Position numbers and translations under genes: made by a program
Source: a virus
Lineage: Duplodnaviria; Heunggongvirae; Uroviricota; Caudoviricetes
Reading direction: 5' to 3' (one strand)
DNA: 26,013 bases
IMG/VR virus record: IMGVR_UViG_2671180460_000013
In this document: positions 4,595 to 26,013 of the stretch, piece after piece
Layout: the number at the start of each line of letters is the position of its first letter
Numbering within the stretch: the stretch's first letter is position 1
Notes under the pieces: generated by a model
The model's database searches: none
The model's input: only the letters and a program-made list of their open reading frames with translations
Told to the model about the DNA's origin: nothing

Positions 4595-6151
4595 TTACCC
4601 CATTCCGTTCTGGCGTAATGTTGTTCCCGCAAATATTTTTGCCACCACAACACAGGGAAGGGGGCCATTTTCTGCGCTGGCTGTCTCCTCCAGTGTCGAT
4701 GTATCCAGTGCATAGTAAGGTGTGTCTGGCATCACCACCCGTATTCTTACTGTTATTGTGCTCGCGGTAGCCGAAACAGAACCGACAAAATACTGAGCAG
4801 GAATGTATTTCCGGTTCTGATTCATGTAGAGATAACGTGGTTCGAGCAGAGCAGAAACAACGATACCCACTCCCCCAACAGAGGATTTCCTGACAGGATT
4901 AGATACATCCAGTTCCATAGCATAAATACGTGAACCATCCGGTAGGCTTTTAAATGAATCCAGGTTGCTGTTCAGGGTACTTGCAGCCACCTTTGGAATG
5001 ACCGGATGAGTGCCATCAACAAATAAGTCTCCGGATTGTTGTCTGGACAGTAAATTGGTCGGCGCAGAAGAAATTGCGGGGTCCTCTGATGAATGGATGT
5101 CAAGAGATTCTATCTGTTTGCGAACAAAGGCCACACTGGCAATTTCATTATCTGCTGCATCATCCGGCGGTGTTGGTATAGTCGGCTTTCCTGTGAATTC
5201 CGGGCTTTCCAGAGGAGCCCTTGTTTCAATAAGTTCCCTGAGTGCAACCTCGTTTACTTTCAGGTTTTCCCAGCCAGTCAGCCAGCCATTACCAGTGGAC
5301 CAGTAACGGTTGTAATAAATATTGCCATTAATGCCGTAGAAAATAATGGCCTTTGCTGTATGTGACGGAAGTGGTGGGTTCTGGTTCGCCTCCAGCCAGC
5401 GGATACTTATCACCCCCCGAAAAACAATGCCGGGAAGTACACCGTTTGCCCCATCCACATAATATTCTCCTGGTTCCACATATCTTATCCATGCCAGAAA
5501 ATCAGCATCAGAGTTAAACCTGACGGCCTCTCCCGGAATAAAAATATGCCCAAAACCAAATGCGCCTGGTGTCGCCAGACGACCTTCAGAACGGTCACGG
5601 ATACCATTCTGAGGTTCCATTGTGGCCGCTTTTTTTAGCCCGAGATTATCGCGTGATTCCTGTTGTGCCTCTTCGCCCTCATCAGCAATTTCTGACAGGC
5701 GATTAGGTGCTTTCAGTGCTGTTTTCAGTTCCGGAGTGATATCCACCTGCCAGCTCTGCGGAGGGGCTGTGACTTGTGCAGACTGAGCAATGCCGCTGTA
5801 TATAATCGTGAAATTACGAATAAGTGATTCGCCTGTTACTTTTTGTCGAACAGGCGTTTTTATTACGCCGCACAATGTTCTGCTGGCCTGATGGATGAGG
5901 CAAATCCAGTCATAACTGAATGCGGAGTCATCGGGAACAACGGCACTACACACAATATTGTTCTGACTTAACTGCCCATAGGTCAGTTCATTAACAATAT
6001 ATGTGATTTTTTCTTCCGGGATGGCATCATCTTCGCGCGTCGGCTCCCGCTCCATCAGGGCAAAAATAATGGCATCAGGGCGTGCAGGTAAATTACTGGC
6101 TGTGCATTCAGCAACCCACTTTTCAAATGCTTTCGTTAACAGTGCGCTCAT
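4595..6151 (-). CDS. tail fiber protein 2 (518 aa)
   Basis: N-terminal ~150 aa alignable by eye to the N-terminus of fiber 1 (PARPD, YxW motifs). Contains the fiber motif SPEFTGKPTIPTPP...EIASVAFV. C-terminal half is unrelated to fiber 1. AT-richer than neighbours. Confidence 0.7.
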   Translation of the reverse strand: MSALLTKAFEKWVAECTASNLPARPDAIIFALMEREPTREDDAIPEEKITYIVNELTYGQLSQNNIVCSAVVPDDSAFSYDWICLIHQASRTLCGVIKTPVRQKVTGESLIRNFTIIYSGIAQSAQVTAPPQSWQVDITPELKTALKAPNRLSEIADEGEEAQQESRDNLGLKKAATMEPQNGIRDRSEGRLATPGAFGFGHIFIPGEAVRFNSDADFLAWIRYVEPGEYYVDGANGVLPGIVFRGVISIRWLEANQNPPLPSHTAKAIIFYGINGNIYYNRYWSTGNGWLTGWENLKVNEVALRELIETRAPLESPEFTGKPTIPTPPDDAADNEIASVAFVRKQIESLDIHSSEDPAISSAPTNLLSRQQSGDLFVDGTHPVIPKVAASTLNSNLDSFKSLPDGSRIYAMELDVSNPVRKSSVGGVGIVVSALLEPRYLYMNQNRKYIPAQYFVGSVSATASTITVRIRVVMPDTPYYALDTSTLEETASAENGPLPCVVVAKIFAGTTLRQNGMG

Positions 6152-6157
6152 TACTTC

Positions 6158-6694
6158 TTAATTCTCGCTAATATTCTGCGGTAATTCTGGCCATACAATT
6201 GCGGCATACGATGATTTATCTGTAACCTGACTGAATGTCATCTCTCGTAACGTTTTTGTATAAATACGCCAGACTTTCAGCTTTTCCTTGTCTTCATCGC
6301 TGATTAACCCCAGCAGCAAGTCTGTCTTTTTATCGGATATTTCCCGTTCAGCAATCTCTATAAAACGCGCACGCTCCGACTCCGCCCGCTGTCTGTAGTC
6401 AACAGGAACAGGAAGAACTGCGCCATCTTTATAATACCAACGTGCTTCAATACAAAAACCTTCGGGTAATTCATCCGCTTCCACAATGGTAAAACCTGCC
6501 GGATAAAGCCGGGATACGTCTTCCGCCATTGAATAAATAACGCCGGTTTCAGGATGCGTGCACAGCTTGTACTTCTTCGTGAATTTATCCAGTGATTCAT
6601 AAAAATCCTGCCCGTCTTCACTACGGAAATACTGAATGCCTTCACCATAAGGCATATCTTCAGGGTAGTAACGCGTAACATTTCTGAGCTCCAT
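6158..6694 (-). CDS. tail fiber assembly protein (P2 gpG / Tfa-like)
   Basis: Start moved to the internal ATG at 6692-6694, preceded by AAGGAG. KDGAV motif and C-terminal WPELPQ resemble P2 gpG as recalled. Immediately downstream of fiber 1. Confidence 0.8.
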   Translation of the reverse strand: MELRNVTRYYPEDMPYGEGIQYFRSEDGQDFYESLDKFTKKYKLCTHPETGVIYSMAEDVSRLYPAGFTIVEADELPEGFCIEARWYYKDGAVLPVPVDYRQRAESERARFIEIAEREISDKKTDLLLGLISDEDKEKLKVWRIYTKTLREMTFSQVTDKSSYAAIVWPELPQNISEN

Positions 6695-6708
6695 TGTTTT
6701 CTCCTTAA

Positions 6709-8406
6709 TTAACCTGACACAGAACGCCATGCGCCATTTATATAAATCTGAGCCTGTTTGTAATACACGCCACCGATATTATCCGCAGAGTTGCTCCCGG
6801 TATCCTGAACCAGAATACCGGACAGGGTGCAGCCAGACGGTGCGCGGAACGTCCAGCTGTGTTCGTTCCCTCCCGGGTTGTAAAACACCTCACTGGTGTA
6901 CTGAAAATTCTGCACGCCTCCTGTTCTGGTCTGGTAGCGTTCATCGAAATTGCCATAATCAGTTGGTGTTACCCGCCCTGAAACATTCACTTCCCGGTTA
7001 CTTTGTAACGCGCCATTCTGAAAACGGAATATGTGCTGACCATTGGCATAAACATCCAGCAGGCCGTCACCATTCTGTTTCAGGCCGGTATCGTTATCCC
7101 CGAAAGCAATTGAGTTACCGCCCAGCGCGTTCTGAACGCCGATACCAAGTGCACCATTGACCTGCGAACCACCGCCAACAGACACTTTATGCGACATGGA
7201 TATTTCACCCGTCCGCAGATTAATAGTGAACGGTCGAAGTGGACCAATATCGCCATTCTCGCCCTGACCTTCACTGGTAGGGATAAGGTGCAGGCACTCT
7301 TCCGAACGACGAAAAATCAGACCAAAGGCTTCGTCGAAAATTCGCAGCGCATTAATACCACGGATTTTCAGCTCCCCGGTCATGGTATCGCCGTCGCGCT
7401 CAACAGCGCCTTTTGCCTTATCCATTACGATTTTTACTGCCTTTGATGTGGCGGCACGGTCTTCTGCGTCACTGTCGGTGTCATTACTGTACTGCGCAAA
7501 ACCCTTTTCGTTCAGTGTGGCATCCGGATGTCTGCGGGATTTTTCGTGTTCTGCCAGCGCATTGCTTTGTTCCTCGTCGGGTGTTTCCGGGCGCAGATCC
7601 TGTGGGCCGTCTCCTGTCATTTTTGCAAGTGGCGCGACAAAGTGTCGGAAGCCGTTATCGTCTGTATAGGACGCATGTTCCTGGCGGGCGCAGAACGTAA
7701 AAACGGTATTCCATTCGCCGGTAACAAATCCCTGCCAGCTTGCATCAATCCAGAGGGTATCCCCGACCGCAGCCGGCAGGCTGTAAGGTTCGCGCAGACT
7801 GACGCGCAGACCTCCCACATAACCCACGCCGGCGGCAACAGTAGCGGTACCGTCCTGATAGCTGACCTGAAAACCATCCCCCAGAAAAGCGGCTTCACCG
7901 TAGTGATCAAACGCCAGCAGCCGGCGGGCCTCATCCATTCCTGCAAGGCGTGCAGTGAAATCAATCTGCCAGACATCAGCGCTGACATCGATATGCATTG
8001 CTGCGGCTGCGCCGTCAAACTCCATGGAAAATGTGCGGATCAGGTTGTTTCCCTGCACGCCGTTCGCTGTTTTAATTTTTTGCTGACGAGGTGTGTGTGC
8101 AATCATGCAGAGCACGCCGCTTTCTTCGTTCAGCAGACCGATCCAGTTGTATTCGAAGTCGCCGACTGTCGTGTCCAGAATGATGGAAAACGCGGTCGCG
8201 TTCGGCGACAGGAGGCCGTACTGGGTGACCGGCGCACGATACTGAATCATGGATTCATCAGGGAGTATCTCATCGCGGGGGATCTCTGCGGATTCATCCT
8301 GTCCCGGAATATATGCAAAAACAAATGTATCCGGTCGCGCAGGTTTTCCACTGATGATCTGATTTGCGCACCAGTGTTCGTATTGTTCAGTAATAATCGT
8401 GCTCAT
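6709..8406 (-). CDS. tail fiber protein 1 (P2 gpH-like)
   Basis: 565 aa. AEHEKSRRHPDATLNEKGF, GDNDTGLKQNGDGLLDVYANGQHIFRFQNG and C-terminal YINGAWRSV match recalled P2 gpH blocks. ATGA overlap with the upstream gpI-like gene. Confidence 0.85.
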   Translation of the reverse strand: MSTIITEQYEHWCANQIISGKPARPDTFVFAYIPGQDESAEIPRDEILPDESMIQYRAPVTQYGLLSPNATAFSIILDTTVGDFEYNWIGLLNEESGVLCMIAHTPRQQKIKTANGVQGNNLIRTFSMEFDGAAAAMHIDVSADVWQIDFTARLAGMDEARRLLAFDHYGEAAFLGDGFQVSYQDGTATVAAGVGYVGGLRVSLREPYSLPAAVGDTLWIDASWQGFVTGEWNTVFTFCARQEHASYTDDNGFRHFVAPLAKMTGDGPQDLRPETPDEEQSNALAEHEKSRRHPDATLNEKGFAQYSNDTDSDAEDRAATSKAVKIVMDKAKGAVERDGDTMTGELKIRGINALRIFDEAFGLIFRRSEECLHLIPTSEGQGENGDIGPLRPFTINLRTGEISMSHKVSVGGGSQVNGALGIGVQNALGGNSIAFGDNDTGLKQNGDGLLDVYANGQHIFRFQNGALQSNREVNVSGRVTPTDYGNFDERYQTRTGGVQNFQYTSEVFYNPGGNEHSWTFRAPSGCTLSGILVQDTGSNSADNIGGVYYKQAQIYINGAWRSVSG

Positions 8407-21985: not shown

Positions 21986-23012
21986 AAAGAAAAAATCCCC
22001 CGTGTTACACGATGGCGTGGCAAAAAAAACAGCCAGCAAAATGACTTTTATTGAATTTGGTGACCCGGAACCGGTCGCTGCATGGGGCTGTTATTACGGC
22101 TCGCTCTGGGATGGCTATAACGGCTGGTACACGCCGCCCATTGAGCGCATGGATCTCGCCATGTTGTCCAATATCGCACCGTATCACGGCGCGGTATTGC
22201 GTGCGCGCGTCAATATGATCATGCAGGGTTTTCGGGGTGGCGGTGGTATGACACACGCCGCCATGGCGGCAGCAGTAACCAATCTGCTGATATTCGGGGA
22301 TATGGGGTTGCTTAAAGTGCGCAATGGCTTCGGTCGAGTGGTGCGCCTGCATACGTTACCTTCTCTGTACCTGCGGCGTAACAACGAGGGTGGCACGGTG
22401 ATTGTGCAGGCGGCACTGGAAGATCTCGTTTACCCGCCAGGCGAAGTGGTGTTCGTGGCCGTTTATGACCCGCAACAGCAGGTTTACGGTGTCCCGGATT
22501 ATATTCACGGGATGGAATCCGCCATGCTGAATGTGGATGCCACCCGCTTTCGCCGCAAGTATTACAAGAACGGCGCACATCTTGGTTATATCCTGTATTC
22601 CAGTGACCCGGACATGGATCCCGAGCTCGAGGCGGAATTCCGTAAAAAGATAGAGGCGTCAAAAGGGGCGGGCAATTTTAAATCCATGTTTATCAATATA
22701 CCGGGCGGAGACAAAGAAGGCGTTAAGGTGATCCCTATCGGGGATTCAGGTACAAAAGATGAGTTCCTGAATATAAAAACCATCAGTGCCCAGGATCAGC
22801 TTGTTGCGCACCGTTTCCCACCCGGACTTGCCGGCATCATTCCCGCAAATACGGCCGGGCTTGGTGACCCACTGAAATCCCGCGAGGCATATTACAGGGA
22901 TGAGGTTATCCCGATGCGCCGCCTGATTATGGAGGGGATCAACAGCGACCCGGATATCAGACGACTGGGGGAGGTGAAATTTATTCTTGATTTTGATGAA
23001 CCCATGGAGTGA
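21978..23012 (+). CDS. Q: portal protein, P2 gpQ-like
   Basis: 344 aa, the same length as P2 gpQ as recalled. Its ATG overlaps the last codons of P (GATGAGTAA). Confidence 0.85.
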   Translation: MSKKKKSPVLHDGVAKKTASKMTFIEFGDPEPVAAWGCYYGSLWDGYNGWYTPPIERMDLAMLSNIAPYHGAVLRARVNMIMQGFRGGGGMTHAAMAAAVTNLLIFGDMGLLKVRNGFGRVVRLHTLPSLYLRRNNEGGTVIVQAALEDLVYPPGEVVFVAVYDPQQQVYGVPDYIHGMESAMLNVDATRFRRKYYKNGAHLGYILYSSDPDMDPELEAEFRKKIEASKGAGNFKSMFINIPGGDKEGVKVIPIGDSGTKDEFLNIKTISAQDQLVAHRFPPGLAGIIPANTAGLGDPLKSREAYYRDEVIPMRRLIMEGINSDPDIRRLGEVKFILDFDEPME

Positions 23013-23077: not shown

Positions 23078-23335
23078 ATGCGCAGACAGAAAGCGCGATG
23101 TCATTGCTGCGGTGCACATGCAGTGATTGAGAAAACAGCCTGGAAAACCGATCAGTTTGCTGATGTGTATTACCGTTGCACCCGTCTCGAGTGCGGACAT
23201 ACCTGGGTGATGAATCTGACCTACTCGCACACACTGGTGCCCAGCGGGCTGGAGAATGGTGTGTTAAAGCTGTTGATTGAGCGGATGCGTCCGGAAGAAA
23301 AACAAATGGCTCTGGAGTTGTTGCAGGCCGGATAG
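23078..23335 (+). CDS. ogr: Ogr/Delta-family zinc-finger late transcription activator (putative)
   Basis: Internal ATG at 23078 with GGGAGG RBS gives 85 aa. CHCC ... CTRLEC gives the CxxC ... Cx4C spacing of P2 Ogr. Followed by a strong terminator. Confidence 0.7.
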   Translation: MRRQKARCHCCGAHAVIEKTAWKTDQFADVYYRCTRLECGHTWVMNLTYSHTLVPSGLENGVLKLLIERMRPEEKQMALELLQAG

Positions 23336-23355: not shown

Positions 23356-23406
23356 AACCCGGAACGGGCGCACAAAGAATTTGCGCACCCGTTCCGGGTT
23401 TTCTTA
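23356..23406 (+). terminator. intrinsic terminator between convergent ogr and the Rrf2/par operon (possibly bidirectional)
   Basis: 13-bp perfect stem AACCCGGAACGGG / CCCGTTCCGGGTT around a 19-nt partly self-complementary loop, followed by TTTTCTTATTC on the plus strand. Confidence 0.6.
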
Positions 23407-23763
23407 TTCAATGGCAGACAACTGATAATTTGTGTCTTCCTGCAGGCTGGTTAAAGAAATATTATCCAGTGCAGCCAGAATAACGTGCTGTGTATATAAT
23501 CCGGAACATTTCATTGCCCGGACAATATCACCAACACTGTAATTTTCTTTTGTCGGGATATATCCACCACCCGGGCCGCGTGTGGCTTTTACCAGGCTAC
23601 TTTCCCGTAAATATCTGAATATTTGCTCCAGATATGACAGTGAAACGGTTTCTTTGCTTAATTGCCGGAGCGAGATTGGCTTTCCGGTGTACTGTTTCAC
23701 AAATTTAATCATTACCATAACTGCAACTGATGCACGCTGGCTTCCGGAATTATCTTTCATCAT
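23404..23763 (-). CDS. Rrf2-family transcriptional regulator (short; lacks the three-Cys cluster ligand set)
   Basis: Start at the ATG doublet 23758-23763 with GGAAG RBS. ISLRQLSKETVSLSYLEQIFRYLRESSLVKATRGPGGGY matches the Rrf2 HTH / GGGY signature. Only one Cys in the C-terminal half. Confidence 0.7.
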   Translation of the reverse strand: MMKDNSGSQRASVAVMVMIKFVKQYTGKPISLRQLSKETVSLSYLEQIFRYLRESSLVKATRGPGGGYIPTKENYSVGDIVRAMKCSGLYTQHVILAALDNISLTSLQEDTNYQLSAIE

Positions 23764-23774
23764 GATTACTTCCA

Positions 23775-24062
23775 TTAATGGCATAAATTGATGGAGCGGG
23801 TCAGTGAATAAAGAGGCAATACATTCCATCCCTTAGAGCGCCAGCTGTCTGCAACATCTTTACTTCTTGTTATCGCCGGTATTCCAATAGGATTATTTGC
23901 GTGCATCCATGCCACTGGCTCTGCTTCCAGTGATGCAAGTGCGATTTCCAGTGCGATTAACATATTGTGATCGTCTTCATCAAGACCGAACGGGATGTCT
24001 TCGCGCCACGATTTAAACTCTGTGATTTTACGTTGTAACCATTCTTTGGTAATGGTGGACAT
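23775..24062 (-). CDS. hypothetical protein (95 aa) co-transcribed between parR and the Rrf2 gene
   Basis: ORF-track start at 24080 is GTG. The internal ATG at 24060-24062 has an AGGAG RBS 6 nt upstream. No recognisable motif. Confidence 0.5.
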   Translation of the reverse strand: MSTITKEWLQRKITEFKSWREDIPFGLDEDDHNMLIALEIALASLEAEPVAWMHANNPIGIPAITRSKDVADSWRSKGWNVLPLYSLTRSINLCH

Positions 24063-24076
24063 AGTTACTCCTGTTT

Positions 24077-24391
24077 TCACTTCGGGAAAAACGCCTGAAT
24101 ATTTTTTTTCACCTGCTGCATATGGGTGGCGCTGTCTGCTGCTGGTTGCGCCGGTTTTTCAGGCTGTACTGGTAGCGGTGGCATCCGTATTTCGTCTTCT
24201 GACCATTCTGCCAGCGAATACGCCAACGCGGGGTGGCGTTTTATAAGAGCCAGTCCGGCCAGAAAAGCCGCGCGTTGTGCGCGGCTGCGTTCGGAGGCTG
24301 GCAGGCTGTCGAGGTAACTGCACGCCTCCCGTTCGCTCTTGACGACGGCGGGCTTCAGATAGAAACTTATCCGTCTGGTTGGTGTCGTCAT
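24077..24391 (-). CDS. parR: ParR-like centromere-binding protein (ribbon-helix-helix type, type II partition)
   Basis: Internal ATG at 24389-24391 with an AAGGAG RBS inside the parM 3' end. RISFYLKP...LDSLPASERSRAQRAAFLAGLAL parallels recalled R1 ParR (IAFKLNPD...LDSIPQGERSRLNRAALTAGLAL). Confidence 0.75.
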   Translation of the reverse strand: MTTPTRRISFYLKPAVVKSEREACSYLDSLPASERSRAQRAAFLAGLALIKRHPALAYSLAEWSEDEIRMPPLPVQPEKPAQPAADSATHMQQVKKNIQAFFPK

Positions 24392-24395
24392 TGAT

Positions 24396-25355
24396 TTACT
24401 CCTTGTCCATTGCGTACAGCCCATTAACCAGAGCAAACTGTGGCACCCCGTCCGCGATGAAAGTCGCATTAACTCCGCAGGCTTCGCGGATAGCGGGTGC
24501 CACAATCTCCGCTCCTCCACCTACAACCATCACCCGCCCGTAACCCGAAAAACCCGCCAGCGCGCGGATCACGCGTTGTTTCAGTGTTTCTTCCTTTTCA
24601 CGAATAACAGCCATCAGGCTGGCGTAATGTGCGTTATTGTGGATGTGCTGGCGCAGCCAGGCTTCATCGTGGCGATGTTCGATAATGGTATTAGCGATGT
24701 GGTGACTGGTACGCATACCGTTGGTGGCCATCACCGACAGCACGGCATCGGCCATCAGGGAAACGCCTACGTGTGGATCGCAAAACACCTGGCTGATACC
24801 TGCCAGTTGCCCCTGAACCTTTGCCACATCCAGCGTGGTTCCGCCCAAATCCACAATCAGCAGGGATTCAAACGGACTCATGTCAGCCAGTGCTTTAAAG
24901 CCTGCCGGAATGGATTCAGGCATAACCCGCACGTTACGGATAGTGAATGCCTCACCGTTCTGGTACTCCACCGGGCGCATGACGTTCGCTTTTTTGCGGT
25001 TGATGTTGGCCATGTCCGGCTGTGCGTTTGTGTCGAAATACTCGCTCAGTGGCAGGGTGACAACCACATCCACCTCCTGTGGCGTGATGCCTGATTTGAC
25101 CAGCGCGTGATGAATGGCAATTACATTCACATCGCTGTACTGGTATTGCGTGTCGGTCGTCTGGACAAAGCGATCGCTGACCGGATCAAAACCATAGCGC
25201 ACGCCATCAAGCATGTAGTTCGCGGGCTGCGTGCCACCGAACGGCGCAGACCATTCCGACTTGAAGCTGTTCGGGCTGATGGCGTTGCGGCGTTCGCCGT
25301 TCTCAGTCCATGCCAGCTTGATGTTGGTGGAGCCGTCATCGATACAAATTTTCAT
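24396..25355 (-). CDS. parM: ParM / StbA-family actin-like segregation ATPase
   Basis: 319 aa. MKICIDDGSTNIKLAW, ISPNSFK, YSDVNV..HHAL, VMPESIPAG, DLGGTTLD and VVGGGAE blocks align by eye with recalled R1 ParM along most of the protein. Confidence 0.9.
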   Translation of the reverse strand: MKICIDDGSTNIKLAWTENGERRNAISPNSFKSEWSAPFGGTQPANYMLDGVRYGFDPVSDRFVQTTDTQYQYSDVNVIAIHHALVKSGITPQEVDVVVTLPLSEYFDTNAQPDMANINRKKANVMRPVEYQNGEAFTIRNVRVMPESIPAGFKALADMSPFESLLIVDLGGTTLDVAKVQGQLAGISQVFCDPHVGVSLMADAVLSVMATNGMRTSHHIANTIIEHRHDEAWLRQHIHNNAHYASLMAVIREKEETLKQRVIRALAGFSGYGRVMVVGGGAEIVAPAIREACGVNATFIADGVPQFALVNGLYAMDKE

Positions 25356-25386
25356 GTCGCTTTTCCTTATGTTGATTAATTAATCG

Positions 25387-25484
25387 TTTACGGGATTCTG
25401 AAATCCCGTTTTTGCCTGTTTTATGCGCGCTTCATATATCGCGGCGCGTTTTTTGCTCATTTACGGGATTCGTGAGTCCCGTTT
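25387..25484. repeat. two copies of a ~20-bp palindromic motif (TTTACGGGATTC...TCCCGTTT) 73 bp apart upstream of parM; candidate parC centromere / operator flanking the par promoter
   Basis: ACGGGATT-ctga-AATCCCGT at 25390-25409 and ACGGGA-ttcgtgag-TCCCGT at 25463-25482. The proximal copy sits 30-55 nt upstream of the parM ATG; the distal copy overlaps the 3' end of the upstream ORF. Confidence 0.45.
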
Positions 25485-26013
25485 CTGTCAGTTTTTTGTT
25501 TCCACTGGTCAGGCCACCCCGCAGCAGGTCTGCTTTGCGGCTGGCGCGTTCAGTGGTTTCACTGATTCTCTGTGCGTGCTCTGCGTCGCGGATGGTGCGC
25601 AGCATGTCAGAAAGCACGGTAACGGGTGTTTTCATGGTGTTCTGGTCCTGCTGAAGTGTGGATGCCAGGCGTGCGGCGGCTTCAGGGTCTGATGCTCCCA
25701 GCTGTGCCAGATAGCTGGCGACCGGGTTATGGCGGATCTCTGTGCTGCTTACGCCATGATTATGGCTCAGGCGCTGCCAGAGCTGCGTGATTCGGCTGTC
25801 CGGGCGGGTATCCGGTTTGCGTACAATTTCAAATCCCTGCGGTGCAATGATGCTGCCGTCAACGTACAGACTGCCGCCCCGTAACAGGTGCTGCATCTGT
25901 TGTTCACCGATATGCAGGCCGAGAGATTCAGCAGACTCCCGCCATTCTTTAGCGAGTAATTCGTGGTTATCAGGCAAAGGCCGCTGCTGTTTGCGGCTCT
26001 GTGTCCAGCTCTG
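25432..26013 (-). CDS. hypothetical protein, 5'-partial (reading frame open to the window edge)
   Basis: ORF-track start at 25977 is TTG. Hand translation of 25978-26013 in frame shows no stop, so the gene probably starts beyond the window. Stop at 25432-25434. Confidence 0.5.
   Translation of the reverse strand, partial: QSWTQSRKQQRPLPDNHELLAKEWRESAESLGLHIGEQQMQHLLRGGSLYVDGSIIAPQGFEIVRKPDTRPDSRITQLWQRLSHNHGVSSTEIRHNPVASYLAQLGASDPEAAARLASTLQQDQNTMKTPVTVLSDMLRTIRDAEHAQRISETTERASRKADLLRGGLTSGNKKLTETGLTNPVNEQKTRRDI

Follow-up and report, generated by a model that had tools for sequence, protein, structure and literature searches.

A short Rrf2-family protein lacking the iron-sulfur ligand loop and a mosaic Eaa-type protein encoded behind parMR in a P2-like prophage

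The Rrf2-family regulator IscR controls more than 40 genes of Escherichia coli (PMC5411485) and contacts DNA through Ser40, Glu43 and Gln44 and, in the wing, through Arg59, Pro61 and glycines (PMC5411485; PMC9338935), its type-2 sites following the consensus xxWWWWCCxYAxxxxxxxTRxGGWWWWxx (PMC4055776). The output of IscR depends on the occupancy of its iron-sulfur (Fe-S) cluster, and in Yersinia the protein is indispensable for type III secretion and virulence. CymR of Bacillus subtilis and Staphylococcus aureus has the Rrf2 fold without Fe-S ligands; it is a full-length (~138-140 amino acids, aa), chromosomally encoded protein with a long dimerisation helix, and it acts with an enzyme partner, named O-acetyl-thiol-lyase (PMC9338935). 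In P2-like phages, the region from gpA to gpQ (portal) is a cos-proximal variability hotspot, in which about one quarter of these phages have a partition system and whose cargo includes old, tin, retrons and other defence systems (PMC9122126; PMC13586616), along with non-defence cargo (PMC9122126). The early accessory regions of lambdoid phages have been described as mosaic (Ea22 variants). Here we analyse two small genes situated behind parM and parR in a viral DNA stretch of 26,013 nucleotides (nt), IMG/VR record IMGVR_UViG_2671180460_000013 (below, the window), one of them encoding an Rrf2-like protein of 119 aa, which we call mini-Rrf2, and the other a 95-aa protein. A preliminary description had placed both on the minus strand behind parMR, and we confirm this. 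The reading that we favour, with middling confidence, is that these are two independent genes of the lambdoid early type and that the Rrf2 gene encodes a signal-blind IscR-like DNA binder.

The 119-aa protein matches the Pfam Rrf2 profile (PF02082) with E = 3.9e-13 and 50.1 bits (cutoff 30), covering only profile positions 2-87 of 132. All Rrf2-family models of NCBIfam stayed below threshold, with IscR the best among them: the superfamily model TIGR00738 scored 52.8 vs a cutoff of 73.3, the IscR equivalogs TIGR02010 and NF008110 scored 58.6 vs 207.55 and 45.6 vs 275 bits, and the CymR equivalog 48.5 bits vs 195. The wing motif Lx3Gx6Gx2GGx2L is present, as LVKATRGPGGGY, and every top fold match is an Rrf2 protein. 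When the profile of the subfamily was compared with solved structures, it matched IscR (2e-22), CymR (7e-15), RsrR (3e-9) and NsrR (4e-4), while the AlphaFold2 (AF2) model, with a predicted local distance difference test score (pLDDT) of 86, fits best on apo-IscR (4hf0 and 4hf1) and on IscR-DNA complexes. The C-terminal helix of the model is short (residues 93-100), and the architecture of full-length Rrf2 proteins (~130-165 aa with a long C-terminal dimerisation helix) is not found in this protein. As had been noted from the sequence, the protein is short and has a single cysteine, C86; it also has one histidine, H93, and neither of the two is conserved in the subfamily alignment.

Alignment by hhalign to residues 8-137 of E. 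coli IscR requires gaps of 21-23 residues in total, which take out the C92-H107 loop and the initial half of the helix that follows, so that the IscR cluster ligands Cys92, Cys98, Cys104 and His107 are absent together with the loop. Because C86 is not conserved and this loop is deleted, cluster ligation in any known Rrf2 way should be impossible for the 119-aa protein, as was supposed in the preliminary description, and the loss of the loop and of half of the following helix implies that mini-Rrf2 could never switch to a holo form. The DNA-reading part, in contrast to the sensor part, is kept: the IscR contacts listed above align with S43, E46, Q47, R62, P64 and G65-67, and mini-Rrf2 shares with E. 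coli apo-IscR the recognition helix SLSYLEQ(I/L)F, the wing RGPGGGY and the lack of a cluster. It differs from E. coli IscR in its overall sequence (~31-33% identity), in its length and in the location of its gene, which lies between parR and ogr in a prophage and not upstream of iscSUA. With CymR it shares the Rrf2 fold devoid of Fe-S ligands, and it departs from CymR in length, in the dimerisation helix and in being encoded by a phage. A recent capture of the host iscR was considered and rejected, since the identity to E. coli IscR is below the 40-47% identity to many longer (~140-185 aa) Rrf2/IscR-type proteins in the databases.

An exhaustive hidden Markov model (HMM) search retrieved full-length short relatives of 95-123 aa, and a profile search added members from Mixta, Klebsiella and Enterobacter. 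In a crude neighbour-joining tree with IscR as the outgroup, 24 of the 25 short proteins fell into one clade of 25 leaves, which was not seen when the same crude tree was rooted at midpoint. The columns S41, S43, Y44, E46, G63-Y68 and L99 are invariant, and no Cys or His is conserved; conserved cluster ligands, whose appearance on a proper alignment had been named as grounds for dropping the cluster-free interpretation, were thus not found. A Foldseek search of the model against predicted viral structures gave one significant match, a 111-aa protein. Mini-Rrf2 is part of a small clade of temperate-phage proteins (~104-123 aa), in which the cluster loop is missing and the DNA-contact residues of IscR are invariant. 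In the searchable literature we found no phage-borne Rrf2 regulator and no mention of Rrf2 together with prophages or P2-like phages, nor did we find an earlier description of a phage-restricted, truncated Rrf2 subfamily devoid of the sensor loop. The locus itself does appear in a published catalogue, and the annotation of the protein names the Rrf2 family.

The relatives of mini-Rrf2 occupy several kinds of surroundings. They are found behind DnaC-like and DUF1627-like genes in the replication/nin regions of lambdoid phages, between the repressor gene (cI) and int in prophages of Klebsiella, Citrobacter and Mixta, and, once, behind a GhoT/OrtT-like gene. In two lambdoid lineages (loci L004, 1304-2358, and L099, 4297-5327) mini-Rrf2 directly follows a gene for a DUF1627-like winged-helix protein of 234-242 aa, itself preceded by a DnaC-like gene, and this DUF1627-like gene is the sole recurring neighbour of mini-Rrf2. 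In a Klebsiella-type prophage (locus L047), a direct repeat of ~22 nt (GAATCGAGTTTTGACCAATG...) lies on both sides of mini-Rrf2, at ~5949-5972 and ~6395-6418, which suggests either insertion of mini-Rrf2 as a cassette or a role of the repeats as binding sites.

As to the 95-aa protein, which had been held to be unassignable, it matches PHROGs 660 (3.3e-18), 60 and 5117 and has 274 homologues in enterobacterial prophages, many of them named Eaa or DUF551-domain proteins; these PHROG matches and more than 270 homologues make it assignable to a family, and the suspicion that the ORF might lack conservation in related elements and be spurious is not borne out. It had no match in Pfam, NCBIfam or PADLOC. 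The family alignment is mosaic, with an N-terminal helical module carrying the motif IALASLEAEPVAW and the shared ALASLEAEPVAW, in which ALASLEAE is invariant and PVAW nearly so. The 95-aa protein ends, after a short unique tail, where its relatives run on into DUF551 or other C-terminal domains, and the DUF551 domain (PF04448) was not found in it by Pfam. Its AF2 model (pLDDT 83.5) consists of a helical hairpin and a small alpha/beta unit, and comparison with the folds in the PDB returned no informative match. Of the HMM and structure searches that the preliminary description had called for, those with the Rrf2 protein led to an IscR-like assignment and those with the 95-aa protein to an Eaa/DUF551-N-type family without an informative fold match. 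The protein is like those of the lambdoid exo-xis/ea region (Ea22, Eaa and DUF551 variants) in the helical module with IALASLEAEPVAW and in belonging to a family as mosaic as the Ea22 variants; it is unlike the lambdoid Eaa/DUF551 proteins in lacking a C-terminal domain, in its short unique tail, and in being encoded by a P2-like phage and not in an exo-xis region.

In related prophages three genes lie between parR and Rrf2, in the order 137 aa, 95 aa (not the 95-aa gene of the window) and 88 aa. The reverse complement of the window matches one such longer form (locus L011) in two pieces, 4857-5440 (98.8%) and 6094-6742 (99.5%), which correspond to where the 137-aa gene starts and where the 88-aa gene ends, respectively; the two matches overlap by 32 nt, and the longer form has 653 bp between them that the window lacks. 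Because of this shared overlap and the missing segment, the 95-aa gene is probably a deletion chimera of two paralogues joined at a common 32-nt repeat, and we infer that the event proceeded as a deletion from the longer form. Other variants of the slot contain a 69-aa gene with an 88-aa gene, or a ~200-aa gene, which from its sequence we read as Ead/Ea22-like, with a 91-aa gene. A strong ribosome-binding site and the open frame of the 95-aa gene are kept in E. coli, E. albertii and Salmonella.

The window represents a P88-type (Xuanwuvirus, Peduoviridae) P2-like integrated prophage. In a 99.7% identical E. coli chromosome the prophage adjoins pheA, and the order of genes there is int, the early operon, gpA (replication endonuclease), parM, parR, the two cargo genes, convergent ogr, portal and terminase. 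Phages P88 and vB_EcoM-569R5 carry unrelated small genes behind parR in the same slot. Among 5426 complete E. coli genomes, the parMR junction was present in 1274 and the cargo in 37, all 37 copies being chromosomal and at least 99% identical; the cargo was found in none of 72,556 PLSDB plasmids, and the Rrf2 gene in none of the deposited phage genomes searched. The same cargo occurs in prophages of Salmonella enterica and E. albertii, and a single-protein scan of genome contigs returned E. albertii only. The expectation that the same two genes would be met beside parMR elsewhere therefore held for prophages of E. coli, Salmonella and E. albertii and failed for plasmids. Nor is the arrangement previously undescribed, as had been suggested: Table S5A of Rousset et al. 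(2022) lists it with both exact accessions, untested there, this table being the sole listing that we found, and we met with no mention of Rrf2 in the main text. The base composition was correctly described as AT-richer than that of the flanking genes (GC 0.42-0.44 and GC at third codon positions, GC3, 0.40-0.43 in the two cargo genes vs 0.55-0.57 and 0.58-0.65 in parR and parM). The region is best explained as cargo that the gpA-gpQ hotspot acquired by horizontal transfer, in agreement with the earlier view of an accessory element appended after parMR.

In occupying this slot the two genes are like old, tin, retrons and parMR itself (Rousset et al., 2022), and the location raises the question whether the pair, or the Rrf2 protein alone, could be an anti-phage or superinfection-exclusion determinant, acting, for instance, by repressing genes of an incoming phage. 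The presence of defence systems in the same hotspot, the patchy distribution, the AT-richness and the fast turnover of the slot all speak for such a role. However, PADLOC searches at E <= 1 gave no match for either protein, for parMR or for the variant neighbour genes, neither protein has an enzymatic or effector domain, the hotspot also houses non-defence cargo, and the relatives of mini-Rrf2 reside in lambdoid early operons, which are not recognised defence slots. The characterised gpA-gpQ cargo consists of defence systems or toxins, and the cargo described here resembles none of them. We therefore regard a defence function as improbable.

The pattern of selection differs between the two genes. 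For the Rrf2 gene, the ratio of nonsynonymous to synonymous divergence (dN/dS) between E. coli and Salmonella is 0.08 and the corresponding ratio for polymorphisms (pN/pS) is 0.08-0.13, with 16 synonymous and 7 nonsynonymous variants over 25 loci; for the 95-aa gene, the same values are 0.73 and ~0.75, with 4 synonymous and 11 nonsynonymous variants over 18 loci. The variant counts of the two genes differ (Fisher p = 0.019), these statistics being based on few substitutions in closely related alleles. Taken as they are, they indicate that the Rrf2 gene is under purifying selection and looks functional, and that the constraint on the 95-aa gene is weak. The latter, along with the chimeric nature of the gene and the lack of the C-terminal domain present in many relatives, could be taken to mean that both genes are decaying, functionless hitch-hikers left behind by recombination at the hotspot. 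But all 25 loci have an intact Rrf2 gene, which, as said, shows low pN/pS, its product is a member of a conserved phage clade in which functional residues do not vary, and even the 95-aa gene retains its ribosome-binding site and frame in three species, which makes decay of both genes quite improbable. In the reading that we favour, the 95-aa gene would be dispensable for the function of Rrf2.

The preliminary description had considered that the two genes could be a maintenance/immunity regulator pair or an accessory module. A toxin-antitoxin or regulator-effector pair, with the 95-aa protein as the effector and the Rrf2 protein as its regulator or antidote, would agree with the distance of only 11 nt between the genes, and a parallel for it may be seen in one unrelated element, an integrase-bearing island (loci L101 and L102, 4814-5348), where a gene for a 58-aa GhoT/OrtT-like membrane toxin lies 10 nt upstream of mini-Rrf2; no other context gives any hint of a pairing of mini-Rrf2 with a toxin. 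Yet no gene with the Eaa motif was found at any of the 29 mini-Rrf2 loci outside the P88 lineage, within up to 6 kb on each side, members of the Eaa-type family are widespread where no Rrf2 gene is present, and what lies upstream of Rrf2 changes even among P88-type elements (the immediate partner being of 95, 88 or 91 aa, with other genes beyond it). The 95-aa gene itself is chimeric and weakly constrained, and its product has no toxin-like domain or fold. Since relatives of each gene occur without the other, the two do not, on the sequences compared, form a conserved module, and we consider a functional pair very improbable; the best explanation is that both are genes such as occur in the early accessory regions of lambdoid phages (exo-xis, nin) and not a two-component system.

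That the Rrf2 protein acts as an additional regulator of parMR or helps to maintain the prophage, in line with the suggested link to partition, is hard to credit despite the apparent co-transcription with parMR, given that ~97% of the E. coli genomes with the parMR junction lack the Rrf2 gene, that relatives were also met in phages whose examined stretches contain no parMR, that the gene is absent from PLSDB plasmids, and that ParR is the known autoregulator of ParMR systems.

We return to the reading of two independent genes of the lambdoid early type, with the Rrf2 gene encoding a signal-blind IscR-like DNA binder. What was observed here, namely the genomic context, the family assignments, the lack of cluster ligands, the retention of the DNA-contact residues, the pattern of selection and the lack of co-occurrence, would be accommodated as follows. 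Deletion of the Fe-S sensor loop and of half of the following helix from a winged helix-turn-helix protein of the IscR type would have produced a DNA-binding protein that is cluster-free, signal-blind and probably dimeric. With the base-reading residues that it shares with apo-IscR, it would bind operators resembling the type-2 sites of IscR, and the timing of its action would be set by the expression of the operon, the sites being occupied whenever the latter is expressed. The targets would most plausibly lie on the host chromosome, because the reading head has been conserved between phage genera, while phage operators usually differ from one phage to the next.

Several points weigh against this reading. 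No exact match to the type-2 consensus core was found in the window or in the whole prophage, the relaxed matches are marginally above chance (26 vs 15.5 +/- 3.7), and in 12 representative loci they show no positioning near the mini-Rrf2 genes, so that these searches point to no particular target. Mini-Rrf2 lacks the N-terminal KGRY motif of IscR; dimerisation may be weakened or altered by the shortened C-terminal helix; the argument from selection draws on a small number of substitutions; and the hotspot is enriched for defence systems, a circumstance of which the favoured reading makes no use. A more specific version, which we put forward as a speculation and regard as unlikely in this exact form, is that mini-Rrf2 is a dedicated mimic of apo-IscR in temperate phages of Enterobacterales, which would occupy host type-2 sites (suf, hya, ydiU and others), or compete or heterodimerise with host IscR. 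In lysogens or early in infection, the host Fe-S/oxidative-stress regulon, or mobile-element genes gated by IscR, would then no longer follow the actual cluster status of the cell.

The features of the locus are collected in Table 1.

Table 1. Features of the parMR-ogr region, with coordinates given in the window.
Feature	Coordinates	Strand	Basis
parM (actin-like segregation ATPase), opens the four-gene block	24396..25355	-	Pfam StbA_N 1.8e-82, ParM_N 1.6e-68; PHROG 691; RefSeq ParM
parR (Plasmid_stab_B adaptor), 4 nt behind parM	24077..24391	-	Pfam PF10784 1.4e-24; PHROG 2515; RefSeq
Shine-Dalgarno AGGAG of the 95-aa gene	24068..24072	-	read from sequence; 5 nt to ATG at 24062
95-aa mosaic Eaa/DUF551-N-type gene, WP_000104418.1	23775..24062	-	PHROGs, homologues, alignment, AF2 model
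32-nt recombination junction within the 95-aa gene (codes EIALASLEAEP), probable	23917..23948	-	paired matches to L011
Ribosome-binding site GGAAG of the Rrf2 gene	23769..23773	-	sequence; inside inverted repeat 23765-23788
mini-Rrf2 gene, 119 aa, WP_000974052.1	23404..23763	-	Pfam, PHROG 24072 (2e-47), AF2, hhalign to IscR
21-bp hairpin between convergent Rrf2 and ogr; probable bidirectional terminator	23356..23400	.	inverted repeat, fold energy, T-run
ogr/delta-like zinc-finger late-gene activator, slot flank	23078..23335	+	Pfam Ogr_Delta 1.4e-12; RefSeq

The four minus-strand genes are tightly spaced, the gaps being 4 nt (parM-parR), 14 nt (parR to the 95-aa gene) and 11 nt (the 95-aa gene to Rrf2). 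The hairpin (-43.3 kcal/mol, z = -7.35) begins 3 nt past the Rrf2 stop codon, toward the convergent ogr, and is followed by a T-run on the plus strand. The short gaps and a hairpin just past its stop codon are consistent with the Rrf2 gene being the last one of the par transcript, as had been proposed, and the cargo most likely forms the end of the parM-parR transcript; a promoter scan returned a single weak site, located inside the 95-aa gene, the count being below chance expectation. The longest Rrf2-like ORF is 23404-23829, while RefSeq calls the 119-aa form (23404-23763); in one allele the first ATG is replaced by ACG, which indicates that the second ATG, at 23760, is enough for the start. 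Rfam and tRNA scans of the window were empty. The palindromic stretch at 23765-23788, with the perfect core CCATTAATGG, covers both the 95-aa stop codon and the Rrf2 ribosome-binding site, and could be a protein-binding site, a translational-coupling element or a chance occurrence.

Upstream of the block, a 42-nt direct repeat is present in two copies that are 79% identical (25384-25425 and 25457-25498), one in the 76-nt gap that precedes parM, the other within the 3' end of gpA. Each copy holds a short hairpin (ACGGGATTC...GAATCCCGT-like), and the repeats are candidates for the parC centromere and ParR-binding site. ParMR is a plasmid-type segregation system, and here it resides in a P2-like prophage that is integrated into the chromosome in all complete genomes inspected; of 1407 matching places, 1405 are chromosomal and 2 on plasmids. 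On the other side of the slot, ogr is situated between the portal gene and the cargo, and its longest ORF, starting from GTG at 23009 (108 aa), overlaps the portal stop codon; the length calls differ (85 aa in RefSeq, 104 aa in other assemblies), and phage P88 has no ogr at the corresponding position.

In Salmonella enterica (loci L005-L010, 6946-7575) an extra 209-aa gene is found on the opposite strand between Rrf2 and ogr. Its product has long hydrophobic stretches, which suggest a membrane protein, with a weak, sub-threshold match to DUF6338 and no PADLOC match, and the gene is a further sign of cargo turnover. The early operon of the P2-like prophage, as seen in L001 (NZ_CP043414), also includes an SPFH-domain gene, a MarR-family gene and an ead/Ea22-like gene, so lambdoid-type accessory genes are present elsewhere in the same element.

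If mini-Rrf2 regulates phage genes only, or does nothing measurable, the locus would be one more uncharacterised entry in a catalogued hotspot. The absence of a conserved module bears on screens that treat neighbouring genes as functional units, since adjacent genes in a hotspot can be accidents of recombination and not systems. If, on the other hand, the favoured reading is true, a permanently "apo" phage-borne copy would be a simple route by which a prophage could rewire the IscR regulon of its host.

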